32,000 bases of DNA from Candidatus Saccharimonadota bacterium (GTDB taxonomy: Bacteria; Patescibacteriota; Microgenomatia; UBA1406; GWC2-37-13), in NCBI GenBank assembly GCA_016700135.1, contig CP065004.1, positions 420,001-452,000 of the forward strand, given 5' to 3'. Within the stretch, counting starts at the first letter, position 1. The number at the start of each line of letters is the position of its first letter. A program made the position numbers and the translations under genes. The notes below the pieces were generated by a model. It did not search any database and was not told where the DNA came from. It saw nothing but the letters and a program-made list of their open reading frames with translations. This document shows, one piece after another, positions 3,403-30,943 of the stretch.

Positions 3403-3960
3403 ATGCGAACAAAAATTCATAATTATTCGAAGCCGAAAATCACTTCAAAAAAAATCAAGAGTAATTTTTTTTACAGTAAAAGAATGTATGACGGTGAGGA
3501 TCTTCTTGCCGGTATGATGGATGTTAGGATTCTTGCACGGTCCGGCTCTTGTAGCTGTTTCCCTGATTATACGAAAGTACTCCTTCCCGGCAACAATACG
3601 AAATCGATAAGAGATATTCGAGAAGGAGACACGGTGACTTCATACAATCTTGATGAGAATAGATTGACTGAGAGCAAAGTCATGGAGCAAATTATTCATC
3701 TTGATGCAAAAGTACAGTACTTTATCATCAACGGGAATATCAAGACAACCGCAGAACATCCGTTCTGGGTAAACGGAGAAAGATGGACAAGAGCCCACGA
3801 GATAAAGGTAGGAGATTGGCTGCTTACACCGACAGGTGAAAAAGTGGAAATTTCCGATATCGAGTCTTATTCCGCAGTAGAGACAGTATACAATCTTGAG
3901 CTGGAAGGAGAAGAACACAACTATTTTGCAGAAAATGTACTGGTACATAACCAACGCTAA
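3403..3960 (+). CDS. 51-aa leader-like N-terminal peptide fused to a complete Hint (intein-fold) autoprocessing domain
   Basis: 185 aa. Hint block A is C52-FPDYTKVLLPG...IRDIREGDTV, block B is TAEHPFWV, and the terminal block is VYNLELEGEEHNYFAENVLVHN followed only by QR-stop. The N-terminal 51 aa contain Y8-SKPKI and end in SGSCS directly before Cys52 (codon 3556-3558). Confidence 0.8.
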   Translation: MRTKIHNYSKPKITSKKIKSNFFYSKRMYDGEDLLAGMMDVRILARSGSCSCFPDYTKVLLPGNNTKSIRDIREGDTVTSYNLDENRLTESKVMEQIIHLDAKVQYFIINGNIKTTAEHPFWVNGERWTRAHEIKVGDWLLTPTGEKVEISDIESYSAVETVYNLELEGEEHNYFAENVLVHNQR

Positions 3961-4785
3961 TGTAAGATGTCTCCGTTTTTGAAAAATGATATAACCTTTT
4001 CCTCGTCCTTGGGGAAATCAAGGTAATAAAAGTGATTAAACTCCGCTACAAACTTCAGAAATATTTCCATTTTGTCTTTTACCTGCACACCGTCATAAGT
4101 AAAATCACCTAAAAATAAATTCAGTATCTGCTTATTGTCTTCCAGTTTTGTGACTTTGACATTCGCTCGATTTTCTCAAAAAGAAGATTTTCCTGAGAGG
4201 ATAGCTTTCCGAATGCTTAGTTAGCCACCAATTCCTTTCCCATAACGGATTTTGGAAGCAATGGAAGGTATTCCCAATCTTTAATCAGGACAAATCATCA
4301 GCAAAACGGTGGAACTTTTTCCGTAGGAGTGTACTGATTGTAGTCTTCCCCGCCCCGGATTTTCCTAAAAAAAGATATGCTCTTCCTTCGTGAATAATGC
4401 TTGATGCATGCTGAAAAAATCCGGTATCTTTTATGAGAATACTCAGAATTTCCGTAATAATATAATGAAATTGAGACGTGCTTATGGAATAATAAGTTCG
4501 GATACGATTCGGAGATTTTTGCTCATAGAGATTGATAAAGTGAAATTTGCTTTGAATACCGGGAATGACACTCATGATATTGCTTTCCCGAAACTCAATC
4601 GTATAATCAACCTTTTTGGGCTTTTCCATAGAGACAAAGTCGCGAAAAAGCATCATTATCTCTCGCTGCAATTTGTCGCGAAGAAACACCGTAAAACGGG
4701 GCTTGATCATAACGACTTTAATTGAAAAGCCGATAATATTCAGATAAAAAGTACTCATAGATCCTTGTATAATAATCAGACCCAT
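3957..4785 (-). pseudogene. HPr-kinase-like P-loop kinase paralogue, inactivated (in-frame TGA plus one frameshift)
   Basis: The ORF 4285-4785 ends ...HASSIIHEGRAYLFLGKSGAGKTTISTLLRKKFHRFADDLS-TGA (4285-4287). The same frame continues as LKIGNTFHCFQNPLWERN...YPLRKIFFLRKSSEC, collinear with the 11615 paralogue (ADD..AFQLPLEKK..PIRALFYLSQS). A 1-nt frame change near 4158 then gives KVTKLEDNKQILNLFL...FLKFVAEFNHFYYLDFPKDEEKVISFF...-TAG (3957-3959). Confidence 0.65.
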
Positions 4786-4806: not shown

Positions 4807-7044
4807 ATGTCAGAGATTCATCCCATCATTCAAACCATTGAGAACAACGATGAGGCTTATATACTGTGGAAAGATCACAACATCAAAAATGCAATTGTTT
4901 TGCATATAGACGCACATTTAGATTACAGAAACGATCGTGCCGGACTTCATATCGGGAATTATCTAAAGCATGCAGTTAAAGAACATCTTGCAAAAACGAT
5001 CTACTGGATAGTGCCGGGAAGCGGCAAACAGTTTACAAGCAAGCGGCAAGCGATCAAACAAAAACTGCGTTCTGCAGGGATTCACGAAGAAATAGTACAA
5101 GCAAAATCAGGACTAACGACACTTATTGACCAAACTCGCTTGATCGTATGCCCCTTAGGACTACTACCGAAGACTATCGAAGAACCATATGTCATCGATA
5201 TTGATCTCGATTTTATGTTTTTTTCTTCCTGTCTTACGGCCGATCGGGTACGTAATATTGGCAAAAGATCGCCGTGGATCTCTACTGAGTATTTTGCAAA
5301 GACAATAAAACCGTTGGTAAAAAGTGCCGCATTGACTACTCTTTGCTACTCGACAACCGGAGGCTGGACTCCTATGAGATATCGCCATTTCGGAGATCAG
5401 ATTTTACATATTTTGGGAACTCAAAAGGACAGTATTCATCAAAGAATTATCGCTGGAAATTTTTTTACTTCGTTCTGGAAATATTTCAAAGATAATACAT
5501 TGCAGCAGGCGAAAAAATATTATCAGTCTGCTTTAGCACTGAATCCGACATACGCAAGTTTTTTCATGACTGACGGTCCTCTGTTCATATTGAAAGGTGA
5601 CTTGAGAAGTGCAAGAACAGAATTTTCCCGACTGCAGCAAATTGATCCTCAAAATATTTATGCAATCTTTGGCCTGGGCCTCGTGGAGCTACTTTCAGGC
5701 AATTTGACAAAAGCGAAGGTCTTGATGGAAAAAGCACGATCAATAACGAGTAATAAGGAAATTGTACTCTTTTTAATATATATACAGTCACAACTTGGTG
5801 AGCACGAGATGGTTCAAGAACTTCTGACGGAGTACAAAAAGAGTACGTTCCCTGAAAAACCGCTACCCACAAATGTTCTTAACGGGATACTCCATGAGAT
5901 CGCGGAAAAACTTAAGACAGAGCATCAGATAAAAAATATCGGACAGATGTATCTGTATCCGAATCCTCACGCGGTCACAGTATGGAAAAGGCTGGCGGAA
6001 TACTCCTCCAATAACATCGGAAACTGGACTGAAGAACCTGAAAGCCTTCGGCATACAGCAGCCGCAATCGAACTTGATCTTATCGAAAAAATGGTTGATT
6101 TATATTTCGAAAACCCTGCCGCATATGGAGGATATATGACATCCGGTGCGACGGAAGGAAATATTTTTTCTGCATGGCTGGGACGTAAATATCTTGAAAA
6201 GAAACCCGTGAAATCTCCTATCATACTTCTTGCCAATGACCTCGCCCATTACTCTATCTTCAAGGCAGCAGACGTAACCGGTCTAACCGTTCAATCCATC
6301 CCGGTCAATACCAAAGATTGGAACACGGATACCGACAAACTCATAAAAACAGTCGTCAAATTAAAGAAAAAAGGTATTTCAAAATTTCTTATACCTCTCA
6401 CTCTCGGATACACAGTCGGAGGGACAAATGATGACGTTCAAACAATTGTTCAGGAACTACGCCGGTTGAAAGAGAAAATGGGTATTGAGTATTTCCTTTG
6501 GATCGATGCCGCACTTTCCGGCCTTACCATACCGTTTCTTAAGAATGACTATAGATCCTATTTCTCTCAGGAAATCCATACGGTTGTCGTTGACTTTCAT
6601 AAGGCTCTCGGCGTCCCGATGCCGGCAGGATTTGTTCTCTACCGAAAAGAATTGGCGGGACCGATAAAAACGACTATCCCTTACCTGTCAACCGGTGACA
6701 GCACTCTCCTCGGTTCACGAAACGGAATTGCTCCAATAGCAGCCTGGATGAGTATCCATCAGTATGGATTTACCAAACTTTCCCGTATCCTTAAGAAAGA
6801 AATACATCGCAAGAATAGGATAATAAGCGAAGTGCGAAGAAAATTTCCGGATGCAAGAGTAATAACTGACAGCGATTCACTCCATGCCGCCATATTAGTA
6901 CATGAAGCGCTTCCTCAATCATTCTGTACACGATATGGGCTGCATCTCCGAAAATATACGATAAACAACAAAGAATACTTGTTGTATCCCTTGTTTTTCA
7001 TGCCCCGATGGGATCAGGAATATGCAAGCGGTCCGCGGGAATGA
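4807..7044 (+). CDS. Three-domain fusion: UPF0489-like N-domain, TPR repeats, and a group-II PLP-dependent decarboxylase-like C-domain
   Basis: N-domain: AYILWKDHNIKNAIVLHIDAHLDY and YVIDIDLDFMFFSS (UPF0489-like HxDxHxD and DIDLDFF blocks). TPR: AKKYYQSALALNPTYA and FSRLQQIDPQNIYAIFGLG. C-domain: GGYMTSGATEGNIFSAW, AHYSIFKAADVTGL, IDAALSGLTIPF and VVVDFHKALGVPMPAGFVLYRK (PLP-lysine D-x-HK block). The track starts at TTG 4765; I prefer ATG 4807 (MSEIHPII). TGTATAAT at 4766-4773 is a possible extended -10. Confidence 0.7.
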   Translation: MSEIHPIIQTIENNDEAYILWKDHNIKNAIVLHIDAHLDYRNDRAGLHIGNYLKHAVKEHLAKTIYWIVPGSGKQFTSKRQAIKQKLRSAGIHEEIVQAKSGLTTLIDQTRLIVCPLGLLPKTIEEPYVIDIDLDFMFFSSCLTADRVRNIGKRSPWISTEYFAKTIKPLVKSAALTTLCYSTTGGWTPMRYRHFGDQILHILGTQKDSIHQRIIAGNFFTSFWKYFKDNTLQQAKKYYQSALALNPTYASFFMTDGPLFILKGDLRSARTEFSRLQQIDPQNIYAIFGLGLVELLSGNLTKAKVLMEKARSITSNKEIVLFLIYIQSQLGEHEMVQELLTEYKKSTFPEKPLPTNVLNGILHEIAEKLKTEHQIKNIGQMYLYPNPHAVTVWKRLAEYSSNNIGNWTEEPESLRHTAAAIELDLIEKMVDLYFENPAAYGGYMTSGATEGNIFSAWLGRKYLEKKPVKSPIILLANDLAHYSIFKAADVTGLTVQSIPVNTKDWNTDTDKLIKTVVKLKKKGISKFLIPLTLGYTVGGTNDDVQTIVQELRRLKEKMGIEYFLWIDAALSGLTIPFLKNDYRSYFSQEIHTVVVDFHKALGVPMPAGFVLYRKELAGPIKTTIPYLSTGDSTLLGSRNGIAPIAAWMSIHQYGFTKLSRILKKEIHRKNRIISEVRRKFPDARVITDSDSLHAAILVHEALPQSFCTRYGLHLRKYTINNKEYLLYPLFFMPRWDQEYASGPRE

Positions 7045-7895
7045 AATTTGTATTCAGTCGGGTCAGAGATACCCGCCCGGAGAAAACTTTGTTTTCTATA
7101 CTGACAGAAATAACATCTGCCGCAGTGAATTTTGTAGTTTATCGGACTGATACAGCTAAACATTTTTTCGAGCGGATATCCTTTCTCAGTAGCCCAACGT
7201 ATCAAAATATCTTTGTCCCAAAAAAATCCGAGTTCTTTCTCTAAAGCAAGGGATGTATACTGCCAGTTCATGTCACCGGTCAAAATGCAAAGATTTTGCA
7301 TCACGCTTCGCATCGCCGTCAGCGTCTCATACTTCAAACTTTCTCCGTCTGACGTGACGAATGCAGAGAAGATCGTGCGGATTGATACATTCTTTTCTTC
7401 CTGAAGAAAAAGCGCATACTCGGCAGCATTCAGGGCTAAAAGACCGCTGTAAAGAGGTAAGCCTTTCCTCTGATTTGTGTCACTACTTACAACCTCCTGA
7501 GAATGCTCGGTGATCTTCCATCTGATCTCTTTCGGAGGCATAGGAACATCCAAGTACTGGACTGTCTGAAAAAGCTTAGCATATTTTTTCTGGAAAAACT
7601 GAGAGAAGAACCGTACTGCATTTTCTTCCCGTTGGATGCGCTTATGTCCTCTCCGGAAAAAAACAGGGTAGACCTGCATCTGATACTCTTCAAGAAGCAT
7701 TCCCCAAAGTATAGTAGAGTCCAAACCACCGGATACGGTGAGGATTACCGATTCTCCTTTTTGAGGCATGCGGAAAACATATCCCCGCTTCTCCTTCAAA
7801 AAAGACTCAATGCATTTCAAGGCTGAAAGGTCTTCAAGCTTTCGCTCTATTAACATTCTCTGTAGTTGTTTACTTGTGAGTTTCGGTAATTTCAT
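7014..7895 (-). CDS. QueC-like PP-loop ATP pyrophosphatase (7-cyano-7-deazaguanine-synthase family fold)
   Basis: 293 aa. PP-loop VILTVSGGLDSTILW, and a C-terminal zinc cluster SCISPINYKIHCGRCYFCQYRKQSFLRAGISDP matching the QueC pattern C..CG.C..C..R...F...G..DP. The start overlaps the upstream stop (ATGA at 7895). Its 3' end overlaps the convergent 4807-7044 gene by 31 nt. Confidence 0.7.
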   Translation of the reverse strand: MKLPKLTSKQLQRMLIERKLEDLSALKCIESFLKEKRGYVFRMPQKGESVILTVSGGLDSTILWGMLLEEYQMQVYPVFFRRGHKRIQREENAVRFFSQFFQKKYAKLFQTVQYLDVPMPPKEIRWKITEHSQEVVSSDTNQRKGLPLYSGLLALNAAEYALFLQEEKNVSIRTIFSAFVTSDGESLKYETLTAMRSVMQNLCILTGDMNWQYTSLALEKELGFFWDKDILIRWATEKGYPLEKMFSCISPINYKIHCGRCYFCQYRKQSFLRAGISDPTEYKFHSRGPLAYS

Positions 7896-8772: not shown

Positions 8773-9759
8773 TTATTGTATCCTGACACCCATCACATAG
8801 GCGGGATCTATCTTTGCGGAAATAATAAACTCATCTCCCGGTGAAACAGATAACTTTTTGTTTGCAGAGGCCTTCAAGACACCCTGCGGAGGAATATTCA
8901 GATTCTGTGCCAGATTCTGAACATGGTTTCTACTGAGTAAATCAATCTTTAACTTAGCACTTCCCAATGTTCCGAAATGCCCATCTTTATTGAATATTCC
9001 TGTATCTTTGGTATCCCCCACTGCCACTTCAACACGAGAAAAGGTGTACTCATGATGCACTACGATATGAAGGCTTTTATCCTTCACGTAATAATTATCT
9101 CCTTTTTCTGACAACAGGAATGACGGTTTTTCGCTAGAGTTAAGGAGAACAGCGTGCGGATACTGACCTTTAAATGAAATACCTCCTCCAAACTGCTCCC
9201 GAGATTTATGCTTCAGATCTGCAAAAGCAGTACCGGGAGAAAAAATTAAGGTTTGTTTAGGAGTCGTATCCTCCGGAAAAAAATCCATATCAAGAGAGTG
9301 TATAACAGAAGTTGCTCCCACTCCTTTTCCGCTATTTATAATGCATATGGCTTGCGGAAGCAGCTTCCCCGAGTAATATGGCCAGTCATGAAGCGCTTCT
9401 ACCTCCGGGTTATCCTCTTCTCGATATTCGGCAAGTTTATCTCCGAACGGTACAGCTGCAAACTGCTTGGTTCCCCAGAACGTCCAAGAATCTGTTTTTT
9501 TATCAAATACAAGAACACGTGAATACGCAGGTTCAGAATCCCAGTTCTTTTGTGCAGGAAGACTGGCTTTTCGATGTGCGAGCGTAATCAAATCAAGAAC
9601 TTTTGTATGAAACATTTCAGGAATAGACACGACTACGGCTTCACCCTGATGGAGGACAGTATTCAGTACACTTGAAAAAGAACATTCCTTTATAACGCTT
9701 ACTGAATGTACTGACTGAATAATCGTCGGATCGCCGGGAATAATCGGCAGCTTATGCAT
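8773..9759 (-). CDS. Hypothetical protein (328 aa) inside the PqqD-to-QueC-like operon; no recognised domain
   Basis: Long ORF with protein-like composition. It overlaps the upstream PqqD-like gene by 8 nt and lies 5 nt from the downstream gene. I recognise no motif. Confidence 0.6.
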   Translation of the reverse strand: MHKLPIIPGDPTIIQSVHSVSVIKECSFSSVLNTVLHQGEAVVVSIPEMFHTKVLDLITLAHRKASLPAQKNWDSEPAYSRVLVFDKKTDSWTFWGTKQFAAVPFGDKLAEYREEDNPEVEALHDWPYYSGKLLPQAICIINSGKGVGATSVIHSLDMDFFPEDTTPKQTLIFSPGTAFADLKHKSREQFGGGISFKGQYPHAVLLNSSEKPSFLLSEKGDNYYVKDKSLHIVVHHEYTFSRVEVAVGDTKDTGIFNKDGHFGTLGSAKLKIDLLSRNHVQNLAQNLNIPPQGVLKASANKKLSVSPGDEFIISAKIDPAYVMGVRIQ

Positions 9760-10045
9760 GAGAAGATTTTGTGGGTTTCTTTTCGATTAGTAATTTTTTC
9801 TTCATAAGTTTGTCTACAAACTCTTTCGTATCTTTCAGGGCTTTCTCCTGATTAATTTCATACTCATCGACCAGATATTTTACAAGATCACTAAAAGTCG
9901 CACCTTTTTTTAGCTGCTTGAAAAGATCAGCAGCCGTTTCGTTGAGGGTATGCAAAATTGAGGTTTCACCGTCGAAGATAAATACCTCCTCATTCACCTG
10001 CTGGACAACGAGGTCTTTTTTGAGTTTATATTTTGATTTCTTCAT
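9752..10045 (-). CDS. PqqD-family protein (RiPP recognition element-like), copy 2
   Basis: 97 aa. VVQQVNEEVFIFDGETSILHTLNETAADLFKQLKKGATFSDLVKYLVDEYEINQEKALKDTKEFVDKLMKKKLL fits the PqqD pattern (beta strands, then LN.t....w, then a 3-helix bundle). Confidence 0.75.
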   Translation of the reverse strand: MKKSKYKLKKDLVVQQVNEEVFIFDGETSILHTLNETAADLFKQLKKGATFSDLVKYLVDEYEINQEKALKDTKEFVDKLMKKKLLIEKKPTKSSHA

Positions 10046-10311
10046 ACGCTCTCAACTATATGTAACTTGACCAGTGACTGGATAAATGTCTTAACCTCCT
10101 TTTTGGCGTTGTTATTTGATATCTCGTACTCCTTCGTTAATGAAGCTATTATTTGCACCAATGTTTTTTTTTCTTTCAGGGACTGAAAAATGATAGAACC
10201 CGTTTCGTTAAACGTATAGAGTTTTGACTCTCCAGCATCAAAAATAATTATTCCTTCCGGAACCTTCTGAACAATAGCTCCCTTTCTGATTTCATATTTC
10301 TTTTCAGCCAT
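10042..10311 (-). CDS. PqqD-family protein (RiPP recognition element-like), copy 1
   Basis: 89 aa. IVQKVPEGIIIFDAGESKLYTFNETGSIIFQSLKEKKTLVQIIASLTKEYEISNNNAKKEVKTFIQSLVKLHIV. Overlaps copy 2 by 4 nt. Confidence 0.75.
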   Translation of the reverse strand: MAEKKYEIRKGAIVQKVPEGIIIFDAGESKLYTFNETGSIIFQSLKEKKTLVQIIASLTKEYEISNNNAKKEVKTFIQSLVKLHIVESV

Positions 10312-16893: not shown

Positions 16894-18126
16894 ATGAATA
16901 CATTATTCACTCAGATAAAGTCAGATCGTATTAGAAAGTACGCTTTGTACGTTTTCTTGTTTTTTCTTCCTGTCCAGCTCGGTACTTTTTTCTTTCTCCC
17001 GATATCATACATTGACGGTCTCCGTATTGACTATCTGGCTCCGGCTTTATATATGACCGATCTCTTAGTCTGCATGCTCATTGCCGTACACTGGAAAACC
17101 ATACGTGATGAGATAATAAAATATACACAAATCAAATGGTTGGTCTTTGCTTCTCTGTTAATTGTGCTTATTCAGATAGATACGGCAATACAGCCTGTCA
17201 TCGCACTATATCGGACGGCAAAGGTAATTGAAGGACTTTTCTTGTTCTTCATTTTTCGCAAATCCGAAATACCGGCCCCCTTGCTGTTAAAAATACTTTT
17301 TTCAGCTGCGCTCACTCAACTGAGTATAGCGCTATATCATGTCCTGACGGGCCATTCTGTGCAGGGAGGAGCATATTTTTTGGGAGAACGTTCTTTTTCA
17401 CTTTCCACACCGGGGATAGCAAAAGTAGCCATTTCAGGTGTAGAAGTACTTCGCGGGTACGGGACATTCTCTCACCCGAATTCTCTTGCCGGCTTCTACC
17501 TGCTGCTGTATGCTTTTGTCCTTTACGCTCCGAAATCGGCAGGCATCTGGAAGTACCTTTTTCTGGGAATATGTATGATGCTCATTGTCCTGTCTTTTTC
17601 AAAAGTAGCCATCCTGGGGGTACTTCTCCTGTCTGCATATTATGCCATCCGGAATCTCCAAAATTGCACGGTGTGTACACTCTCAAGAGTGACGGTACCG
17701 CTCGTACTGGCAATCATTATTTTCGGCACACAAGGGGATACGGAATCGTTGCAAAAACGCGTGTGGCTTACCGATTCAGCCGTAAAAATTATCACGTCAT
17801 ACCCGTGGACGGGAGCCGGTCTCGGGAACTACCTGTATGCACAGTCTGTATTCCCGATACCTTATACATATGTTTTTTTGCAGCCTGTTCATAATGTTTT
17901 TTTACTCCTTATAGCAGAGGCAGGCATACCCGTATTTTTTTTCATTTCTTATGTGTTTTTGCGGTATATAAAAGTGTATTTCAGTAATCCGCAAGTACAC
18001 GCTGTACTCTTTGTGCTTCTGCTTACCGGTATGTTTGATCACTACTGGCTGACACTGCAGCAGAATTTTCTACTGCTCCCTGTCGTATTTGGACTTCTCC
18101 GAAAGCATGAACATGTGGTAAAATAG
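16894..18126 (+). CDS. O-antigen-ligase-family (Wzy_C) polytopic membrane protein
   Basis: 410 aa and about 10 TM helices. Periplasmic-loop block GYGTFSHPNSLAGFYLLL and the signature QPVHNVFLLLIAEAGIPVFFF. Confidence 0.7.
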   Translation: MNTLFTQIKSDRIRKYALYVFLFFLPVQLGTFFFLPISYIDGLRIDYLAPALYMTDLLVCMLIAVHWKTIRDEIIKYTQIKWLVFASLLIVLIQIDTAIQPVIALYRTAKVIEGLFLFFIFRKSEIPAPLLLKILFSAALTQLSIALYHVLTGHSVQGGAYFLGERSFSLSTPGIAKVAISGVEVLRGYGTFSHPNSLAGFYLLLYAFVLYAPKSAGIWKYLFLGICMMLIVLSFSKVAILGVLLLSAYYAIRNLQNCTVCTLSRVTVPLVLAIIIFGTQGDTESLQKRVWLTDSAVKIITSYPWTGAGLGNYLYAQSVFPIPYTYVFLQPVHNVFLLLIAEAGIPVFFFISYVFLRYIKVYFSNPQVHAVLFVLLLTGMFDHYWLTLQQNFLLLPVVFGLLRKHEHVVK

Positions 18127-18135
18127 TGCTTACCT

Positions 18136-18206
18136 TGCCCGGTCGTCTAACGGTAGGACAACAGACTCTGGATCTGTTTATCTTGGTTCGAATCCAAGCT
18201 GGGCAG
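18136..18206 (+). tRNA. tRNA-Gln (anticodon CUG)
   Basis: Hand-folded cloverleaf. Acceptor TGCCCGG/CTGGGCA. D-arm GTCT-AACGGTA-GGAC. Anticodon arm ACAGA-CTCTGGA-TCTGT (anticodon CTG). Variable region TTAT. T-arm CTTGG-TTCGAAT-CCAAG. Discriminator G. CCA is not encoded. Confidence 0.85.
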
Positions 18207-18488
18207 CAAAACTGGATTCGGACGGGAGTGACAGTAAAGATCAGACTATTACAGTAAGCTATAGTCAAAACACTTCCATAATTTTCTTCATCGGTTCTAA
18301 ACTCATCGAGATACCAATAAAGCTCATTTTATATTGACAGCAAAGTCTAAATCGAACATGATTGACCCTAGTTAGGATTCGAACCAATTATTCCTATAGT
18401 CGAAATTGATACGTTTTGTTATACTATTTTGAATATATATTAACAGGACAATATAATTCAAATTCAGAAAAAATATATATAGTACTTA

Positions 18489-19982
18489 ATGAGAGCTTTA
18501 TTAGATACAAATATTGTTATAGATCGGGAAAATAATACAATTCTGGATAAAAAATGCCAAGATTTGTTCCGTATAGCTCAAGATAATAAAATAAATCTCC
18601 TTATTCATCCGTTAACAATAAAAGAGATTGAAAAGGATACTAATCAAGAAAGGAGAAAAATTTCACTATCAAAAATATCTTCATATTCACAACTTGAATC
18701 TCCAAAAATTTTATCTGACATTAGTCAATTCCCTGAACTAGGGAGTTTAAAAGGGAAAGACAAGATTGATGATAATTTACTTTATTGTATAAAGCGAAAT
18801 GCAGTAAATCTATTAATCACAGAGGATAAGGGATTATTGAGTAAAGCAAGTCGTATCGGAATAGATGATAAGGTAATGAATATTATTGAAGCAAATAGAT
18901 ATTTTAATAATCTATTCTATTCCTATGTCGCTACACCAATACATTTGCAGGAAGTTCCATTATCAACCTTAAATTTTGATGATACATTTTTCGATTCACT
19001 AAAATCATCATATCCTGAGTTTAAAGATTGGTGGGAAAAGATTTCTAAAGAAGGCAGAAAAGGCTTTGTACATCAATTATCTGATGGAACCATAGCTTCT
19101 CTTTTAGTAATAAAAGAAGAAAATGAACCCATCGATGATAGTACTCCAGCAATTAAAAAAGCTAAACGATTGAAGATATGTACATTAAAAGTGAATGATA
19201 CAGGTAAAAAAATCGGCGAGTTGTTTTTAAGAATTGCAATTGATTACGCTGTAGAAAAAAATATTCCTGAAATATATTTAACTCATTTTATAGAGGATAA
19301 TGATAGGCTTGTATCACTAATTAAATCTATCGGATTTATAGAAAAATCAAAAAAAGCCAGTACTGGGGAACCAATATTTATCAAATATCTAGAATTAACT
19401 AAAGAGTTTTCGACTAGAAAAGATATCAGTAGGTATTTGTTCCCTACATATTACGATGGGCCAGAAGTAAATAAATATATTGTTCCAATCAAACCAGAGT
19501 ACCATGATAGATTATTCGTCGGGAAACATGATCGTCAGCTTGCTTTGGCAGAATATAGCAACTCCATTGTAGAACAGAATACAGTTAAGAAAGCCTATAT
19601 TTGTAATTCAAGAATTACTGGTCTACAGGAAGGGGATATTATACTTTTTTATTGTTCAGATACTTTAAAAGCACTTACATCCATTGGTGTAATTCAAGAA
19701 GTATATACGAATCAAGATGAAGCTACAGAAATTGCAAATAAAGTCGGTAAAAGAACTGTCTACAGCTTATCTGAATTAGAAGAACTTGCGAGAAAAAAAG
19801 CACTTGTGCTTTTATTTAGACATCATTTTTATTTCAATAAGCCAATGGATCTCAAGCTCTTACGTGATTCTTCTTTACTAAAAGCTGCACCTCAGTCTAT
19901 AATGAAAATAGATCATCAAAAATATTTAGAGATTAAGAATAAAGCTCAAATTTATGAACGTTTTACTGTCGATAAAACCTAA
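18489..19982 (+). CDS. Three-domain protein: N-terminal PIN-like nuclease, central GNAT-like acetyltransferase, C-terminal PUA-like (ASCH/EVE-type) domain
   Basis: PIN: MRALLDTNIVIDRE and NLLITEDKGLL. GNAT-like: CTLKVNDTGKKIGELFLRIAIDYAVEKNIPEIYLTHF. C-terminal: YIVPIKPEYHDRLF...GDIILFYCSDTLKALTSIGVIQEV, a PUA-like beta-barrel pattern. Confidence 0.55.
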   Translation: MRALLDTNIVIDRENNTILDKKCQDLFRIAQDNKINLLIHPLTIKEIEKDTNQERRKISLSKISSYSQLESPKILSDISQFPELGSLKGKDKIDDNLLYCIKRNAVNLLITEDKGLLSKASRIGIDDKVMNIIEANRYFNNLFYSYVATPIHLQEVPLSTLNFDDTFFDSLKSSYPEFKDWWEKISKEGRKGFVHQLSDGTIASLLVIKEENEPIDDSTPAIKKAKRLKICTLKVNDTGKKIGELFLRIAIDYAVEKNIPEIYLTHFIEDNDRLVSLIKSIGFIEKSKKASTGEPIFIKYLELTKEFSTRKDISRYLFPTYYDGPEVNKYIVPIKPEYHDRLFVGKHDRQLALAEYSNSIVEQNTVKKAYICNSRITGLQEGDIILFYCSDTLKALTSIGVIQEVYTNQDEATEIANKVGKRTVYSLSELEELARKKALVLLFRHHFYFNKPMDLKLLRDSSLLKAAPQSIMKIDHQKYLEIKNKAQIYERFTVDKT

Positions 19983-20346
19983 GTATGTCGATAAGATAGT
20001 GCAAAGTATTAAGAAGTATGAATTTAGAAAAATCATTTTTAAGAATAAATCTCCTTGGAGGGTGTATATATATTGTTCTAGTCCAGTAAAAAAGATTGTC
20101 GGATATTTTACAATTGAAACGATTATTGAAGATCATCCTTATAATTTATGGGAGACTTGTAAAGATCATTCTGGTATCTCTAAAGAAGACTTCTTTACCT
20201 ATTTTGAAGATAGAGAAAAAGGATATGCGATAAAGATTGATAAAATAGATATATTTAAAAATCCCGTTGAGCCAAATGAATATTTCGATAATTTTATTCC
20301 GCCTCAATCATATAAATACTTAGAGGTAGATTTATTGTCCTCATAG
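19954..20346 (+). CDS. ASCH-domain protein
   Basis: 130 aa. MNVLLSIKPKYVDKIVQSIKKYEFRKIIFK...RVYIYCSSPVKKIVGYFTIETII fits the ASCH N-terminal pattern (SIkP.y...I..G.K..E.R). Overlaps the upstream gene by 29 nt. Confidence 0.6.
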   Translation: MNVLLSIKPKYVDKIVQSIKKYEFRKIIFKNKSPWRVYIYCSSPVKKIVGYFTIETIIEDHPYNLWETCKDHSGISKEDFFTYFEDREKGYAIKIDKIDIFKNPVEPNEYFDNFIPPQSYKYLEVDLLSS

Positions 20347-20398
20347 TAAGCTCTTCAACTTAATGGTAGAATTAATATTCTTAAGCACTTTCACATTT

Positions 20399-20640
20399 AT
20401 ACAGTAAAGTCATCGTCGTCGTTTGATGGTTCGAATCCATCTGTGTGTCGAATTCAGGATAAGAGAACAGAGATTCAGATATTAGTCCAATCAAAAATTA
20501 TTATAAACCTTTTACAAAATGGAAAGGAGATTTTAACTATGACATATCCCGCTATACTAATAACATTAGCATTAATTGTTCAGATTAATTTTTCATTCTT
20601 GATACATATCCATAGGGATGGACGACTGACTTTACTGTAT
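20399..20640. repeat. Inverted repeat pair (ATACAGTAAAGTCATCGTC at 20399-20417; reverse complement with a 1-nt indel at 20621-20640) flanking ~200 bp that includes a tRNA T-arm-like fragment
   Basis: Read directly. 14 nt are perfect (ATACAGTAAAGTCA) plus 5 more after a 1-nt indel. The enclosed segment contains GATGG-TTCGAAT-CCATC (20425-20441). Confidence 0.6.
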
Positions 20641-20653
20641 AAATGACGCACTT

Positions 20654-21911
20654 CTATATTAAAGTTTTATTACGTAATCGTCTTGAAATCGGCAGATATT
20701 TGATAAAGTCATGTTTTGCTTTTGGTGTTCCTTCTCGTAATATATATTTTGCAAAATCTTTCACTCCAATATTAATGTCTTCTATGAATTTGTCAGTATT
20801 TAAGTAAATAGCATCCGTGACATGTTTTTTATAATCATTCATAGTGATTTGAAGCTTTTCAGGTATCCGTATATCTTTTTCATCCATTTTTTCAATAATT
20901 TTATTTATGTAGTGCAATAATACTCGTTCCTTAACATAAGGTTCTTTACATTTTTATTCTTAAATCGTGAGCAATGATAATAAATATGGTGATGAGTACC
21001 ACCTGACTTCAGTTTTCTGTACCTTTCCTCTCCTACTACCTTAGAACCACAATTTCCACAGATAAAAATATCTTTAAAAATAAAGAATTTATATCCCCAT
21101 TTTCTCTTCATTGGCAAGCTTAGTTCTTTTGGGTTTCATCAAATATTTCTTTTGTAATGAGAGGTTCATGAGATCCTTTATACCATTTTACCACTTTTTA
21201 AGGAAACTCAAAGTAACCGTAATAAAATGGGTTTTTTAACATAAGATAAACCATGCTGTTGGTAATCTTTTACCCGTCCTAGTAGTAAATTTTTGCTTAT
21301 CCATCCATTCTTTTACCATACGACAGCTATGGTACATATATGCAACACGGTCAAATGCACCTTTTACGATCTCTGCTCTCTGGATCAATAATTATGTCTT
21401 TCATGCCTCCTAAAGATCGATTTAAATAACCAAGAGGTGCAGGACCAGGTCTCCATCCCATCTCACATTTACTTTTAATCCTCTTTTACATTAATTCCTT
21501 TATTGTCATTCTCTAATTTTGCTTGTGAACACAAGATCATGAGTAAGAATTTATCGTTTGGAGTATTGCGGAAGGTTTGGGAATAAGTCCGAATTTCTTT
21601 TAATTTCCCTTGATCCATTAAATCTACTATGACTCCAAGATCACCTGCATTTCTTGATAATCTATCCGGGTGCCATGTTAGGATAGCATTAAACTCTCAA
21701 GCATGATATCTGCAATAAGTTCTTTAAACACTGGTCTTTGTCCTGATTGCTTCGCAGAATGGCTTTCTTGTCTTATTTCCTTGACTGTAGCTCCTTCTTT
21801 TTCGGCAATAAGGGTCATCTCTTTTATTTGCGAATCAATACTCATTGCCTGACGCTCGTCAGATTCTGATGATTTTCTGGCATAAAGACAGTATCCAATA
21901 GTATCACTCAT
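20654..21911 (-). pseudogene. Large serine recombinase, heavily disrupted (at least 6 frame breaks)
   Basis: Fragments recovered in three frames. Resolvase domain: YCLYARKSSESDERQAMSIDSQ...SGQRPVFKELIADI, then ILTWHPDRLSRNAGDLGVIVDL. Recombinase domain: RGLKVKCEMGWRPGPAPLGYLN and LKNPFYYGYFEF. Zinc ribbon: ICGNCGSKVVGEERY...YYHCSRFK. Then a C-terminal coiled part. Confidence 0.75.
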
Positions 21912-22150
21912 ATTGCTGGAATGAATTGTTTAATGGTGGCAATATCCTTCTTATCAACTGCATAAACACCAGAAATACTATATTCGTACTCTTGATCCTT
22001 ATATAAATTTTCTACGTGTTGCTCAAGTAGAATTTCAGCGTAACAATGATTAAAGGTATTAATGATCCAACTGTGATAATACACATAGCCACTTATTGTT
22101 ATTTCTATAGATACTATGAAAGCTTTTGTTTGTTGTTTCATACAACACAA
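21908..22150 (-). CDS. Small hypothetical protein immediately upstream of the recombinase remnant (4-nt overlap)
   Basis: 80-aa ORF only. No motif recognised. Confidence 0.3.
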   Translation of the reverse strand: MCCMKQQTKAFIVSIEITISGYVYYHSWIINTFNHCYAEILLEQHVENLYKDQEYEYSISGVYAVDKKDIATIKQFIPAI

Positions 22151-22187
22151 TGAGGCCAGAGAAGATTGAGGAAGTCAAGTTTAAATA

Positions 22188-22961
22188 TTACATATATCTT
22201 TTATCAATGAATGGAATTGATTTTTCAATAAATTTAGCACCTAATTTTTCAGGATTTACATTTTTAGGAAATTGAGTTTTGCTGTTATAAATTGCTCCTA
22301 TTAGTTTTAAATTTTCAGTTTTACAATTTTTAAAAACTGCTCCTTGTAAATTAGCTCCTGAAAAATTTGTTTTATATAAAGTACAACTATCAAATATGGA
22401 ATGCTGTAAGTGTGCATTTTTAAACGAAGCTTTTATTAAGTCCGCTTTAAATTGTGTGCCGATTAATTTGGCTTCATCGAAAATAGCCAACCTTAAGTCA
22501 ACAACTATAAATTTTGAATTCGTTAAATTAGCTTTTATAAAATTGGCTTCTTCTAATTGTCCTCCGCTAAAGTCTACACCCCATGCTACTGCATCTTGTA
22601 GATTTGCTTTACGAAGCCATGCATCTTTAAAAATGCAATCTTGTTCGAGCCAATTATTTGCTTTTAATTCCGCAAGAGCATTTAATGCCAGTCCATTATC
22701 ACTACTACCAATTTGACGGATTAGTCTAGACTTTAATTCTTTCCGAGCTCTTTGTTCATTTATATAATCAATTATAAAAATAGTAAAAGTTAAACTTAAG
22801 GATTCAATTGCAATACCTTGAGCAAGTTGAGAACCGTGGTAAGCAAAATAAGAAGATGTAAGAAATATAAATATTAATGCAATAAAAATATACTGAAGAA
22901 TAGGCTCTAAATCTGGCATTAGCTCTTTAGTAAATATGTTTTTAATATCGTTATTAATCAT
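22188..22961 (-). CDS. Membrane-anchored pentapeptide-repeat protein
   Basis: Two N-terminal TM helices, then tandem A(D/N)LxX pentapeptides: ANLQDAVAWGVDFSGGQLEEANFIKANLTNSKFIVVDLRLAIFDEAKLIGTQFKADLIKASFKNAHLQHSIFDSCTLYKTNFSGANLQGAVFKNC. Confidence 0.8.
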   Translation of the reverse strand: MINNDIKNIFTKELMPDLEPILQYIFIALIFIFLTSSYFAYHGSQLAQGIAIESLSLTFTIFIIDYINEQRARKELKSRLIRQIGSSDNGLALNALAELKANNWLEQDCIFKDAWLRKANLQDAVAWGVDFSGGQLEEANFIKANLTNSKFIVVDLRLAIFDEAKLIGTQFKADLIKASFKNAHLQHSIFDSCTLYKTNFSGANLQGAVFKNCKTENLKLIGAIYNSKTQFPKNVNPEKLGAKFIEKSIPFIDKRYM

Positions 22962-23001
22962 AAATATATAGATATAAAATAAATCAGACTATTATAGCAA
23001 T

Positions 23002-23026
23002 AAAAACCCCTCTTTCGAGGGGTTTT
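23002..23026 (-). terminator. Rho-independent terminator (stem CCCCTC/GAGGGG, loop TTTC, A5/T4 flanks) after the 23048-23491 gene
   Basis: Read directly: AAAAACCCCTCTTTCGAGGGGTTTT. On the minus strand the hairpin is followed by TTTTT. A second 20-bp perfect palindrome, AAATAACGGATCCGTTATTT (23030-23049), overlaps the stop codon. Confidence 0.6.
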
Positions 23027-23047
23027 AGTAAATAACGGATCCGTTAT

Positions 23048-23491
23048 TTATTGAATCACTTCACACTCTTTAACTTCAATTACTCCAATTGTTTGGTTTC
23101 CAACAACACCTTGAACGGTCACAGTTTGACCATTCGTTAATGGTAGTAGTTGATCTTTATCTTTTACTTTACAGCTAATTTGAGTTAAAGAGAACTCTTT
23201 AGTAGCGATGTTTGTAAATGATAGTCCTGAATCTGTAATATTACTGATCTCAGCAGTAAATTGTACAAATTTATCTTGCCATTCATTTTCAGCAGCAACT
23301 TGATTAGCATCAAATGCGTCAGCCAAAGTTCTTGCTTCTATTACCATTGGAGTAGGGGTCGGTTCTGCTTCATTATTAGTTCCGGAGCCATTCGATCCAG
23401 AGCTATTATTTTTGTCACCAGATCCACTGAGTGCAGCAATAATAATAATTACTACCAGCGCTATTCCTCCCCACTTAAGTATTTTTTTCAT
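23048..23491 (-). CDS. Secreted or membrane-anchored small protein with an OB-fold-like (tRNA_anti-like type) C-domain
   Basis: 147 aa. Anchor WGGIALVVIIIIAALSGS, low-complexity linker NNSSGSNGSGTNNEAEPTPTP, then ARTLADAFDANQVAAENEWQDKFVQFTAEISNI...VTVQGVV, which resembles the small extracellular OB-fold family. Confidence 0.45.
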   Translation of the reverse strand: MKKILKWGGIALVVIIIIAALSGSGDKNNSSGSNGSGTNNEAEPTPTPMVIEARTLADAFDANQVAAENEWQDKFVQFTAEISNITDSGLSFTNIATKEFSLTQISCKVKDKDQLLPLTNGQTVTVQGVVGNQTIGVIEVKECEVIQ

Positions 23492-23524
23492 ATATACACC
23501 CCCTCTCTAATTTAATTTATCAAT

Positions 23525-23600
23525 AGATAATGCTAGATATATCTTGCATTATCTATCCCTATAATACAGGACAAATCGAAAAAAAGCTAGATATATCTAG
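23525..23600. promoter_or_regulatory. Operator-like repeats in the divergent region upstream of the XRE gene
   Basis: The 13-nt GCTAGATATATCT occurs twice (23532-23544, 23586-23598). The second copy is part of the perfect 14-bp palindrome CTAGATATATCTAG. The first is nested in the inverted repeat AGATAATGC...GCATTATCT (23525-23554). Confidence 0.5.
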
Positions 23601-23643
23601 TAAATAAATATGTGTCGACTTAGTAAGCTTTTTGCTAAGTCGT

Positions 23644-23859
23644 ATGAACTACAATCATCTATACAAAAAACTGGGTGAAAACATTGAAAAAATAAGAAAG
23701 GAAAAGAAGTTGACTCAAGAAAAACTTGCTGAAGATGCAGGTCTGCATAGGGAGTATTTTTGGGATATTGAAACTGGTCGGAATATATCTATTAAAACAG
23801 CATATAAAATTGCAAGGGCATTAGAGGTAAAGTTGTCTGAATTATTTGATTTTGAATAA
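23644..23859 (+). CDS. XRE-family helix-turn-helix transcriptional regulator
   Basis: MNYNHLYKKLGENIEKIRKEKKLTQEKLAEDAGLHREYFWDIETGRNISIKTAYKIARALEVKLSELF is a classic HTH_3 pattern. The track starts at TTG 23632; ATG 23644 is preferred. Confidence 0.8.
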   Translation: MNYNHLYKKLGENIEKIRKEKKLTQEKLAEDAGLHREYFWDIETGRNISIKTAYKIARALEVKLSELFDFE

Positions 23860-24147
23860 TTAGTCTCCATAAATTCTTCGGAAATTACTAGTACTGGTTC
23901 TATAGTTTACAGAAGGTCGGCGAAAGCCTTTCATTTTGAATGGTCCAGTATATTTTTTATCTTTCTCAATAATTTTTTGCATTAGCAAGGAAAATGCATC
24001 TGCTAAGTCATCATACTTTTCAGTCCCAAAATAAGTTAGTTGCTGGATTAGAGTTTGTGCATCTGAACCTTGGGGAAAGTAGACTTTACCATTTTGAAGT
24101 AGAGAAGCAGCAATAGAGAGTCTATCTGCTTTAGAAGATTGAAACAC
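23860..24147 (-). CDS. C-terminal end of the terminase large subunit in the adjacent frame
   Basis: Adding one A to the A7 run gives ...EELKKKNYQVEGVSVFQSSKADRLSIAASLLQNGKVYFPQGSDAQTLIQQLTYFGTEKYDDLADAFSLL. That is the usual terminase C-terminal pattern dK..Rl.....l..g.v.fP....l..el..F.....DD..Da. Confidence 0.65.
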   Translation of the reverse strand: MFQSSKADRLSIAASLLQNGKVYFPQGSDAQTLIQQLTYFGTEKYDDLADAFSLLMQKIIEKDKKYTGPFKMKGFRRPSVNYRTSTSNFRRIYGD

Positions 24148-24158
24148 AGATACTCCTT

Positions 24159-25418
24159 CTACCTGATAGTTCTTTTTTTCAATTCTTCTATCGCAGCTCT
24201 TTTATATCCTACGTCTTCAATATCTATTTGCATACTTTTTTTATTTCCAATACTCTCCACAACTTTTTCTAGTTCTTGTTGTGTTTCAAGGAAGGTTAGC
24301 CGTCTATTCATAATATATGGACTAATATAAACGGTTAAATTTTCTTCTGCACCGTATATATATGCACATACAAAAGCTGTTTTATCTGCGGTATCTTTTT
24401 GTGAAATCGCAAGATCTACACCAAGGGCTACATATTGCATATCTGCACGATGTAGTGGCAGTTCTTCATAATATTTAATCCATTCAGGCAAGACTATTTG
24501 GTCTTCTTCTGAAACAATTTTGAGTAAATATTCCCGTTGAAATGTTTTAATATTGCCAACTTTACTTTGTAATGTCGCTATGCTTTTTTGATTTGTAAAT
24601 TTTCCCGGCCATACAGTTATGCCATCATCATTAAGGAGAGGATAAAAGTGATAAGAACCATCTAATTCTTTGTTTTCAATTAGTTCTTTATATCTCATCA
24701 TGACAGAATCGGAATGTAGCAAATTGCCTACCATTATTATTTTCGTTTCCATATCTCCTGCAGGTATTACTTCACCCGATATAAAGTTGAACGTTTTATC
24801 TCGACTTTCTTTTGTTTTAATAGAACTTAAATCTTCAATATCATCACAAATGATGAGTTGTGGCCTATACTGACGGTGTTTTACTCCTCTGATACTTTCT
24901 CCTACTGAATATGTTGAAATACGAGCTCCAAACTGAGAAAGAACTAAAGATGAAACACTCCATTCTTCTTGGTAATCAATTTTTAGATTGAAGTCTCGTT
25001 TTAGAAGTTCATTATTTTCTAATTCCGATCTGATATTCATGAGTAGTTGGCGCGATTGTCCTTGAGTTCTACTAATAAGAACAATATGTTTCAGTTGATG
25101 TTTACCTAAAATACTCCATATTGGGAGTGACATAGAAAATATGGTCGTTTTGGCTGAACCTCGAAAGGTTACTACTTCATCGAACTGACTTTTAATATTC
25201 TCAGAAATGCGAAATAATTCTTCATGAAATGGTGCAGTTGGGTAGGTAATGTGTTCACTAAAATAGATATGAAAGAAGTAATAATGGCTTTCCCATGCTA
25301 GCTTCTTTCTTACTTTCGGATCGTTAATGATTTTATCCTTCAAGCTTTTCATTATCATTATGTAATATTTGTAATGCGTTTTTAATGAGTTCCTCTTGTT
25401 CTGGAGACAATTTTTCAT
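24159..25418 (-). CDS. Phage terminase large subunit, ATPase plus most of the nuclease domain (frame broken at the A7/T7 run 24173-24179)
   Basis: Walker A-like VTFRGSAKTTIFS, Walker B LIICDDIEDL, nuclease block YVALGVDLAISQKDTADKTAF. Ends ...IEELKKRTIR-stop. The real start is probably Met21 or Met23 (25358 or 25352). Confidence 0.75.
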   Translation of the reverse strand: MKNCLQNKRNSLKTHYKYYIMIMKSLKDKIINDPKVRKKLAWESHYYFFHIYFSEHITYPTAPFHEELFRISENIKSQFDEVVTFRGSAKTTIFSMSLPIWSILGKHQLKHIVLISRTQGQSRQLLMNIRSELENNELLKRDFNLKIDYQEEWSVSSLVLSQFGARISTYSVGESIRGVKHRQYRPQLIICDDIEDLSSIKTKESRDKTFNFISGEVIPAGDMETKIIMVGNLLHSDSVMMRYKELIENKELDGSYHFYPLLNDDGITVWPGKFTNQKSIATLQSKVGNIKTFQREYLLKIVSEEDQIVLPEWIKYYEELPLHRADMQYVALGVDLAISQKDTADKTAFVCAYIYGAEENLTVYISPYIMNRRLTFLETQQELEKVVESIGNKKSMQIDIEDVGYKRAAIEELKKRTIR

Positions 25419-25740
25419 CCTCTAATTGTTTAGTAGTAATTTCCAGTTTGTTGGTATAGTCAGGGTGATGATGTTTGAGCCAATAAATAATTCCTGTCAT
25501 ATTCCCGTTTTTGATGGCAGACAATAGTTGGCTTTCTGCCAAATCATTTATGAAAAATTTTCCTTCCTGAATAGCTTGATCAGTTTCTTTCTTGAAAATT
25601 TTGTCCTCTTTCCGCCATCGATAATATGTAGCTCTCCCGATTCCAACCTTTTCGCAAACTATCTGGATTATCGGAATTTTTTTTTGTTCTATAACAAGTT
25701 GTTTATTATTGCCTTGGCGTTCTGTAATGGTATCACCCAT
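25333..25740 (-). CDS. Terminase small-subunit-like HTH protein
   Basis: 135 aa. IIQIVCEKVGIGRATYYRWRKEDKIFKKETDQAIQEG is an HTH followed by helical text, and it sits directly upstream of the large subunit. The assignment rests on position and the HTH only. Confidence 0.45.
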   Translation of the reverse strand: MGDTITERQGNNKQLVIEQKKIPIIQIVCEKVGIGRATYYRWRKEDKIFKKETDQAIQEGKFFINDLAESQLLSAIKNGNMTGIIYWLKHHHPDYTNKLEITTKQLEDEKLSPEQEELIKNALQILHNDNEKLEG

Positions 25741-27726: not shown

Positions 27727-27750
27727 ACAAAATGAAAATTATTAATAAAA

Positions 27751-27797
27751 AAGGACTCCCCCACAAACAAAACTGTCTTTTGTTTGCATGAGTCCTT
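27751..27797. other. Nested hairpin (outer AAGGACTC/GAGTCCTT, inner CAAACAAAA/TTTTGTTTG, loop CTGTC) in a divergent intergenic region
   Basis: Read directly. On the minus strand it is followed by TTTTTTATTAATAATTTTC, which makes it terminator-like, immediately upstream of the ParB start. Confidence 0.4.
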
Positions 27798-29255: not shown

Positions 29256-29268
29256 TTATTTTGAGCAA

Positions 29269-30933: not shown

Positions 30934-30943
30934 TTATAAATTT

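Follow-up and report, generated by a model that had tools for sequence, protein, structure and literature searches.

Peptide arginases OspR (landornamide; PDB 8brp), BipC (biphenomycin) and FlmR/OhkR are RiPP maturases of the pfam12640 (UPF0489) type. OspR, a characterised peptide arginase with the pfam12640 (UPF0489) peptide-arginase fold, has the metal ligands His12, Asp39, His41 and Asp43 (PMC10028609), and BipC, which its authors place in the UPF0489 superfamily, has been proven to act as a peptide arginase that converts Arg to Orn (PMC12707348); the statement in a preliminary description of this locus that UPF0489 has no established function is therefore outdated. TPR-bearing or decarboxylase-fused members are mentioned in neither of two papers on peptide arginases (PMC12707348, PMC12703449).

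Daptide biosynthesis is an RRE-bearing RiPP pathway in which a PLP enzyme and a methyltransferase take part and the peptide C-terminus is rebuilt to an amine (PMC10036551). It employs an oxidative decarboxylase and a class III aminotransferase that act on the peptide itself, and differs from the present locus in having no group II decarboxylase, QueC-like enzyme or arginase. In the formation of capsule glucuronamide in Campylobacter jejuni HS:2, a decarboxylase gives ethanolamine phosphate, an ATP-dependent ligase makes the amide, and a phosphatase then acts. There, too, an ATP-dependent enzyme forms an amide from an amine that an amino-acid decarboxylase has provided, but the enzyme families are different and the acceptor is a sugar.

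The window, by which we mean the whole 32,000-nucleotide stretch of DNA analysed, carries one ORF that joins an arginase-like domain, a TPR domain and a PLP-dependent decarboxylase. This three-part fusion is a rare enzyme of an ultra-small (CPR) bacterium; its parts are all of familiar kinds, but they have not been described in combination. The enzyme probably serves a modified-peptide pathway. Features of the ORF and its neighbours are as follows.

3523..3555, plus strand: putative core of the Hint-domain precursor, V-R-I-L-A-R-S-G-S-C-S, directly before Hint Cys52 (translation)
4807..7044, plus strand: whole ORF, 745 aa, UPF0489/arginase-like + TPR + group II PLP decarboxylase (translation, homologues)
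4807..5421, plus strand: N-domain, residues 1-205, arginase-fold, UPF0489-type, peptide-arginase-like (model, structure match, homologues)
4840..4860, plus strand: motif ENNDEAY, residues 12-18, corresponding to EEH(N/H)EAF of peptide arginases, with Asn14 in place of the MnA ligand His
4903..4923, plus strand: motif HIDAHLD, residues 33-39, the DxHxD metal-binding motif (D35, H37, D39)
5197..5211, plus strand: motif DIDLD, residues 131-135, with metal ligands D133 and D135
5434..5841, plus strand: TPR domain, residues ~210-345, eight helices, about four repeats (Pfam, model, structure matches)
5854..7041, plus strand: group II PLP-dependent decarboxylase domain, residues ~350-745, kin of histidine/serine decarboxylases
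6601..6603, plus strand: codon of the PLP-binding lysine K599 (in DFHK), aligning with HK of SGHK in 7erv and 8jg7
7014..7895, minus strand: QueC-like PP-loop ATPase, in convergent orientation to the fusion, with a 31-nt overlap at the 3' end of the latter (Pfam QueC)
9752..10311, minus strand: two PqqD-like (RRE) genes, likely leader-peptide docking partners (Pfam PqqD)

Translation of the ORF was uninterrupted from 4807 to 7044. Six full-length homologues, 64-74% identical, each contained all three parts, and an identical MS... N-terminus was found in 6/6; because of this common start, the ATG at 4807 is favoured over an upstream TTG at 4765. The three-domain architecture given in the preliminary description was borne out by the translation, the Pfam matches and these homologues, and the blocks quoted there were located at residues 31-40 (VLHIDAHLDY), 130-139 (IDIDLDFMFF) and 596-599 (D-F-H-K). 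The arrangement of the domains is uncertain, since the whole-protein model in the protein atlas had a pTM of only 0.56.

When the same architecture was sought elsewhere, seven versions of the full-length fusion were found in about 5.8 billion protein clusters. Gene order was the same at three fusion loci, the window, L001 and L015; protein P0006 was identical to the L015 copy of the fusion. An assembly artefact is ruled out, because the seven protein clusters came from different sources and the contigs of L001 and L015 are independent and share the gene order. A housekeeping role was rejected: among 401 sampled Patescibacteria genomes, the decarboxylase occurred in 3, the QueC-like gene in 5 and the N-TPR module in 1. 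The fusion is thus rare and tied to a peptide-modification cluster, as had been supposed. Rare as both are, the decarboxylase and the QueC-like gene were found together in genomes G000 and G354. The fusion has a single origin. Its eight decarboxylase sequences in the tree (the seven proteins plus the L015 copy) formed one clade with an SH-aLRT of 100, nested among stand-alone enzymes of QueC/PqqD cassettes.

The N-domain was modelled by AlphaFold at a pLDDT of 96.3. Among 48,161 PDB representatives, its top match was OspR (8brp_A; Z 15.3, rmsd 2.8, 169 residues aligned). This ranking came from the VIA wide scan; Foldseek against PDB also recovered OspR, but its output was dominated by TPR matches. 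A profile-based PDB sequence search found no relative of the N-domain, and the fusion protein had no direct Pfam match to PF12640 (UPF0489) at E<=1. Weak matches were obtained to Arginase PF00491 (E 0.0066) and to the NCBIfam peptide arginase NF052474 (E 0.017; 14.6 bits against a cutoff of 350). However, 56 of 102 N-domain homologues matched PF12640, the homologue from L002 scored 29.3 bits against a cutoff of 27, and the nearest neighbours of the N-domain in the protein atlas were UPF0489 clusters. The UPF0489 assignment made earlier therefore holds transitively, through the homologues and the OspR-like model, whereas direct detection by Pfam failed at E<=1.

Compared with the peptide arginases, the fusion shares the fold, the DxHxD and DIDLD motifs, the position of the first motif and the setting in a peptide-modification gene cluster. 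HIDAHLD, the counterpart of OspR Asp39, His41 and Asp43, was conserved in 148/149 family members; D133 and D135 were invariant (149/149), and DIDLD is also present in OspR and BipC. Five of the six Mn ligands are thus kept, and these are invariant in the fusions. Unlike the peptide arginases, the fusion has a decarboxylase attached and Asn for the MnA His: Asn occupied this position in 7/7 fusions, His in 144 of the 149 family members. The preliminary description had overlooked this exchange. Arginase activity may therefore be lost or changed. Many second-shell positions (E12, W21, N51, W67, W157, T178, S182) were also invariant among the fusions, which are only 64-74% identical.

Where OspR has a dimerisation domain, the fusion has the TPR domain. 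Pfam detected TPR_2 at residues 227-249 (28.2 bits; cutoff 27), TPR_19 (25.7 bits; cutoff 25) and TPR_11, and TPR structures in PDB matched the model at Z 13-15. The UPF0489-TPR module is frequent outside the fusion, in peptide-modification clusters with PqqD: TPR repeats were present in 84/102 N-domain relatives and PqqD in 3/102. In two UPF0489-TPR homologues, P0064 and P0117, a PqqD-like domain homologous to the PqqD genes of the window is fused to the module, and at Omnitrophota loci the module lies amid PqqD, radical SAM, HPr-kinase-like and S24/NTP_transf_5 genes. The closest stand-alone relative of the N-TPR part was P0015.

In the C-terminal part, Pfam placed Pyridoxal_deC (PF00282) at residues 394-677 (46.9 bits; cutoff 27). 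The NCBIfam histidine decarboxylase family NF002748 was matched with an E value of 1e-49 and 168.8 bits, under its equivalog cutoff of 305, and PDB sequence matches included 7erv (E 9e-37) and 8jg7 (E 2e-34). Relative to these histidine/serine decarboxylases, the domain is about 30% identical over about 290 residues; the catalytic residues are conserved, but the substrate-specificity position differs. K599 aligned with the lysine that binds PLP in 7erv (histidine decarboxylase) and 8jg7 (serine decarboxylase) and was invariant across the fusions and their stand-alone relatives, so the PLP lysine noted earlier is intact. H481 (which stacks on PLP), D567 (pyridine nitrogen) and Y626 (catalytic loop) were likewise aligned with both structures and invariant, and the catalytic Tyr lies 27 residues past the PLP Lys, as it does in AtSerDC and CsAlaDC. 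The specificity position of plant serine decarboxylase is the third residue of the YP-Y/F motif (PMC11407765). At this position, in place of the Tyr by which the plant type (YP-Y) is recognised, the fusion has Asn (YPN), and members of the clade vary among N, S and R.

Stand-alone decarboxylases of the same clade usually have a QueC-like neighbour and often PqqD and a tiny lysine-rich peptide gene. The QueC-like gene adjoined the decarboxylase at 26 of 51 non-redundant loci, and at 14 of the 21 whose flanks both extend for 3 kb or more; its product in the window reached no curated family in NCBIfam. A recurrent operon reads methyltransferase, decarboxylase, QueC-like, small ORF, PqqD, S24 peptidase, ABC-2. 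In a basal decarboxylase clade, the partners are YcaO, a nitroreductase-family dehydrogenase and two PaaK-like adenylating ligases instead of the QueC-like enzyme. Together, the QueC-like neighbour at 14/21 loci and the PaaK-like ligases beside the basal clade lend support to the proposal, made in the preliminary description, that an adenylating PP-loop enzyme receives its amine from the decarboxylase. The further suggestion made there, that the amine captures the Hint thioester, is pure speculation. Two clusters of small ORFs near the decarboxylase (87 and 89 aa) were spurious, being antisense ORFs.

An uncharacterised CPR cassette, seen at L016, L017, L024, L031 and L052, shares with the window the decarboxylase clade, the QueC-like neighbour, PqqD and the Lys-rich leader motif: Y-x-K/P-P-K ... 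K-I-K is common to the small ORFs of the cassettes and the N-terminus of the Hint precursor of the window. The cassettes differ in that the decarboxylase stands alone, the arginase-TPR module is absent and YcaO is usually absent (L016 has one); in the fusion, the arginase-TPR module replaces the first ~30 residues of the stand-alone clade members. The cassettes encode tiny peptides, whereas the precursors of the window bear a self-cleaving domain. Within the putative core of the Hint-domain precursor, Arg42 was kept at the window, L001 and L015, and Arg46 was replaced by Ala in L015. The putative core of the second precursor (S74 type) contains no Arg. Among the publications searched, none combines QueC, RiPP and PqqD, and the LPP paper (PMC13381572) mentions none of decarboxylase, QueC, arginase, TPR and PqqD.

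We tentatively favour, with a probability of about 0.4, the reading that the fusion is a peptide-docked bifunctional tailoring enzyme, which would remove the guanidino group of a core Arg and supply an amine for QueC-like attachment to a peptide carboxylate. The N-domain would be a metallohydrolase of the peptide-arginase type whose first metal site is altered, most likely hydrolysing the guanidino group of peptide-bound Arg, and its candidate target is Arg42, a conserved residue within the short Hint-precursor core. The TPR domain may anchor the enzyme on the precursor, or on a complex of the precursor with a PqqD-type recognition protein. The C-terminal domain, a predicted-active PLP alpha-decarboxylase, would convert a free amino acid into a primary amine. 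The QueC-like PP-loop ATPase would activate a peptide carboxylate with ATP, probably that of the C-terminus freed when the Hint or S74 domain cleaves itself, and then couple it to the amine. Domain identities, conservation of the catalytic residues, gene partnerships and the rare, single-origin nature of the fusion are shown by the analysis; we infer both substrates, the order of the steps and the amide-capping chemistry. The bifunctional reading leaves unexplained why amine formation should be fused to a peptide-docked enzyme, and this counts against it, as do the Asn at the MnA position and the lack of Arg in the S74-type core.

The arginase-like domain might instead be dead, serving with the TPR domain as a docking module only, so that the sole chemistry would be amine formation for the QueC-like ligase. 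The exchange of His for Asn at the MnA position in every fusion agrees with this, as does the fact that stand-alone decarboxylases of the same clade do without an arginase-like partner at more than 50 loci. However, at only 64-74% identity the five remaining metal ligands are invariant, as are many second-shell positions, which would not be expected of a dead site, and an Asn side chain can coordinate a metal ion too; we consider a dead domain unlikely. If both active sites, which appear largely intact, worked consecutively on the same guanidino compound, as in polyamine synthesis, free Arg would pass via agmatine to putrescine, or a peptide-attached agmatine would be trimmed to a putrescine amide, giving a diamine cap. 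Fused enzymes often catalyse successive steps, and a ureohydrolase and a decarboxylase are the classical pair of putrescine synthesis. Yet the N-domain is nearest to peptide arginases rather than to agmatinases or free-arginine arginases and has relatives without any decarboxylase; the decarboxylase is nearest to histidine/serine enzymes rather than to known arginine or ornithine decarboxylases, and its clade mates lack an arginase-like neighbour. Consecutive chemistry of this kind is quite unlikely. About as improbable is a bolder form of the bifunctional reading, in which one enzyme both makes and reshapes a new kind of C-terminal cap: the decarboxylase would act on or produce a compound with a guanidino or amino group, this would be joined to the peptide by the QueC-like enzyme, and the altered arginase would trim it there. 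If true, it would be the first RiPP pathway in which C-terminal amine capping relies on a group II PLP decarboxylase together with a QueC-type ligase.

The decarboxylase might also work directly on a peptide-linked substrate, for example an amino acid attached via its side-chain amine by the QueC-like enzyme, so that its alpha-amino acid end stays available for decarboxylation; this would explain the fusion to a peptide-docking module. The joining to a TPR and peptide-arginase module, the constant PqqD context and the action of a PLP aminotransferase on modified peptide C-termini in daptide biosynthesis (PMC10036551) are consistent with such a role. The active-site residues, however, are those of ordinary decarboxylases of free amino acids. 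Moreover, PLP-dependent alpha-decarboxylation requires a free alpha-amine beside a free carboxylate, and a residue within a chain lacks it. We regard this as very unlikely. The last alternative concerns the acceptor. Genes for cell-surface glycans (ABC-2 exporters, Wzy_C, sugar transferases, TagA-like, GT2/GT4 and DegT genes) crowd the loci of many stand-alone decarboxylase/QueC-like pairs, so a sugar polymer, and not a peptide, could receive the amine; Wzy_C genes also lie directly outside the cluster of the window. The pair would then decorate a cell-surface glycopolymer, as by amidation of uronic acids, and the arginase-TPR fusion would be meaningless for peptide maturation. Against this, the fusion sits inside a YcaO/Hint/kinase/PqqD block of conserved order at the window, L001 and L015, its partner domain comes from a peptide-acting family, and PqqD and a leader-like small ORF are present in many of the 'glycan' cassettes themselves. 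Decoration of a glycopolymer is improbable to much the same degree.

Peptide arginases are a young, small family, and we found no description of one that bears a TPR domain or is fused to a second enzyme. The association of the decarboxylase with a QueC-like ATPase, PqqD and a leader-like peptide points to an uncharacterised modification of peptide carboxylates in ultra-small bacteria, from which few natural products are known. Because the fusion physically joins two tailoring steps, it offers a convenient single protein for expression, informative on both gene sets.

The open reading frame at 4807-7044 (+) gave a stop-free translation of 745 residues. An alternative TTG start at 4765, yielding a longer product, is possible; ATG 4807 is the likely start because a Met-Ser N-terminus is common to the six full-length homologues, which are 735-738 aa long and 64-74% identical. 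The three sequence blocks quoted in the preliminary description were all found in the fusion protein:

residues 31-40, VLHIDAHLDY
residues 130-139, IDIDLDFMFF
residues 596-599, DFHK

Pfam placed TPR repeats at 226-311 and Pyridoxal_deC at 394-677 (46.9 bits). The best NCBIfam model was histidine decarboxylase (E 1e-49), with a score far under its cutoff.

The N-domain had been assigned to UPF0489, supposedly a family without established function. Pfam did not detect UPF0489 in the window protein itself, which showed weak matches to Arginase (Pfam, E 0.0066) and a peptide-arginase model (NCBIfam, E 0.017). Among 1.84 billion representative proteins, phmmer with residues 1-215 as the query retrieved 455 relatives at E<=0.001, mostly of 350-550 aa with the domain N-terminal. 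Among 102 relatives scanned, TPR repeats were present in 84, UPF0489 (PF12640) in 56, Arginase in 4 and a PqqD domain in 3. An AlphaFold model of residues 1-350, based on an alignment of 150 sequences, had a mean pLDDT of 96.3. In a scan of 48,161 PDB representatives, independent of Foldseek, its top match was the peptide arginase OspR (8brp_A; Z 15.3, rmsd 2.8 Å, 169 residues, model 4-204). Foldseek also listed OspR and a guanidinopropionase, ranked behind many TPR proteins, and the placement in the protein atlas agreed with an OspR-type/UPF0489 assignment. The UPF0489 assignment is thus upheld by the relatives and the structural match, though not by direct detection, and the family does have an established function, OspR being a peptide arginase (PMC10028609).

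In OspR, MnA is bound by His12 and Asp43 and MnB by His41 and Asp167, with Asp39 and Asp165 bridging; the peptide-arginase motifs are EEH(N/H)EAF, DxHxD and LDIDLDYFSC (PMC10028609). The metal-ligand equivalents D35, H37, D39, D133 and D135 are retained in the window protein, whereas the MnA ligand His12 is replaced by Asn14. This position is Asn in 7/7 fusions and His in 144 of 149 relatives. Because the remainder of the site is invariant, we think from the alignment that the N-domain still binds metal; the His-to-Asn change may have altered its activity.

Across 185,579 species genomes, the fusion turned up at one more locus (L001), and the N-domain minus the decarboxylase at eight. At two Omnitrophota loci, a UPF0489-TPR protein of 476-491 aa lies amid genes for PqqD, B12-radical SAM, radical SAM, HPr-kinase-like and S24/NTP_transf_5 proteins, the same kinds of accessory genes as in the window's cluster. 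Two homologous proteins (P0064, P0117) end in a PqqD-like domain that shares homology with the PqqD genes of the window. At E<=1e-8, the UPF0489-TPR module was not detected in any of the 400 other genomes of Patescibacteria, and a decarboxylase was present in just 1 of the top 150 N-domain representatives. In two other phyla (L005:9950-13598, L007:10016-13604), downstream of the UPF0489-TPR gene lie genes for a GNAT acetyltransferase (~190 aa) and a ~570-aa protein, the latter with a zinc-ribbon match at L005; this arrangement could represent an Arg-to-Orn step followed by acetylation.

The nearest solved structures to the decarboxylase by sequence were histidine decarboxylase (7erv) and plant serine decarboxylase (8jg7). 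As previously proposed, the C-domain has the PLP lysine: K599 aligned with that of both enzymes, as did H481, D567 and the TSGATEGN loop with their counterparts. Tyr626 sits 27 residues past the lysine, as does the catalytic Tyr in plant serine/alanine decarboxylases. The Ser/Ala specificity position of those enzymes is Asn in the window protein and variable across the decarboxylase clade. The domain is rare: of 401 Patescibacteria genomes, 3 had it.

Scanning metagenomes yielded 80 loci; once near-duplicates were removed, 51 were left whose decarboxylase was at least 30% identical. The window's QueC-like gene had a homologue near the decarboxylase at 26 of the 51 loci, and at 14 of the 21 having at least 3 kb on both flanks, frequently spaced by <100 nt. 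Other common neighbours were Methyltransf_24 (41/64 loci), S24/signal-peptidase-like (33/64), ABC-2 transporter (25/64), Wzy_C (13/64) and PqqD (11/64); the recurrent order was methyltransferase, decarboxylase, QueC-like, short gap, PqqD, S24, ABC-2. In three stand-alone decarboxylase cassettes, the QueC-like/PqqD gap holds an ORF of 23-29 codons:

L016:4285-4356, small ORF
L024:7436-7510, small ORF
L017:2827-2916, small ORF

Each has a Lys-rich motif (Y-x-K/P-P-K ... K-I/V-K) matching the N-terminal part of the Hint precursor in the window, and then a short hydrophobic tail; they are candidate precursor peptides. Loci of a basal decarboxylase clade (L061, L064, L065, L068) had no QueC-like gene; each carries two PaaK-like adenylating ligases, and L061, L065 and L068 also have YcaO and a nitroreductase-family dehydrogenase beside the decarboxylase. 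Such loci may represent a further azoline-type peptide cluster that includes an amine-forming enzyme. Of the contextual signals, the pairing of this decarboxylase with a carboxylate-activating enzyme (QueC-like or PaaK-like) is therefore the most robust.

In a quick maximum-likelihood tree, eight fusion decarboxylases (the seven proteins and, from L015, a copy identical to P0006) formed a single clade (SH-aLRT 100) nested amid stand-alone enzymes, its nearest neighbours coming from loci with QueC and PqqD. The same architecture was found at L001 and L015, which share with the window the order YcaO, dehydrogenase, small protein, Hint precursor, kinase, fusion; at L015, QueC-like, metallophosphoesterase, unknown, PqqD and PqqD genes follow. 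The single nested clade and common order therefore indicate that the fusion arose once. Judged by these sequences, it is a one-time joining of a CPR-cassette-type decarboxylase with an arginase-TPR module characteristic of other phyla. L001 (CAZDDM010000022.1), recorded as an uncultured Gammaproteobacteria MAG, has the gene order of the window's CPR cluster at 65-90% protein identity and is probably mis-binned. The HPr-kinase-like gene beside the fusion (window 4285-4785, -) seems to be truncated: it encodes 166 aa, whereas its 82-90% identical counterparts have 276 aa (L001) and 267 aa (L015). GC falls from ~0.40-0.44 in the cluster to 0.29-0.35 across 18000-32000.

Each single domain is of an already known kind. 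In the literature searched, no description of the UPF0489, TPR and decarboxylase combination was found, in keeping with the earlier claim of novelty, and no paper on QueC, RiPP and PqqD together; the two peptide-arginase papers searched (PMC12707348, PMC12703449) mention neither TPR nor decarboxylase.

Several functions can be considered. With Asn14 at the MnA position, the arginase-like domain might be dead, a mere docking domain; the invariant remainder of the site points to retained metal binding. Both domains might instead act on one guanidino compound in a two-step polyamine-type route, or the decarboxylase directly on a peptide conjugate. A role directed at a glycan is a further alternative. 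At L013 in the related CPR genome G354 (G354:C3:14000-33900), a stand-alone decarboxylase is found 1.8 kb from a QueC-like gene, together with an ABC-2 exporter, sugar transferases, a 2-hydroxyacid dehydrogenase, a HAD hydrolase, two methyltransferases and DegT, a set resembling amine decoration of a surface polymer. In decarboxylase cassettes generally, the acceptor may be either a peptide or a sugar polymer.

We tentatively favor a peptide-docked bifunctional enzyme (probability about 0.4), every step of which is inferred. The three Hint precursors (window, L001, L015) end in ...LLAG-x-MDV-R-ILA-(R/A)-SGS-(C/S)-S ahead of the Hint cysteine; the short core thus has one conserved Arg. The arginase-like domain would act on this Arg, the decarboxylase would supply an amine, and the QueC-like enzyme, encoded convergently, would join the amine to a carboxylate freed by self-cleavage.
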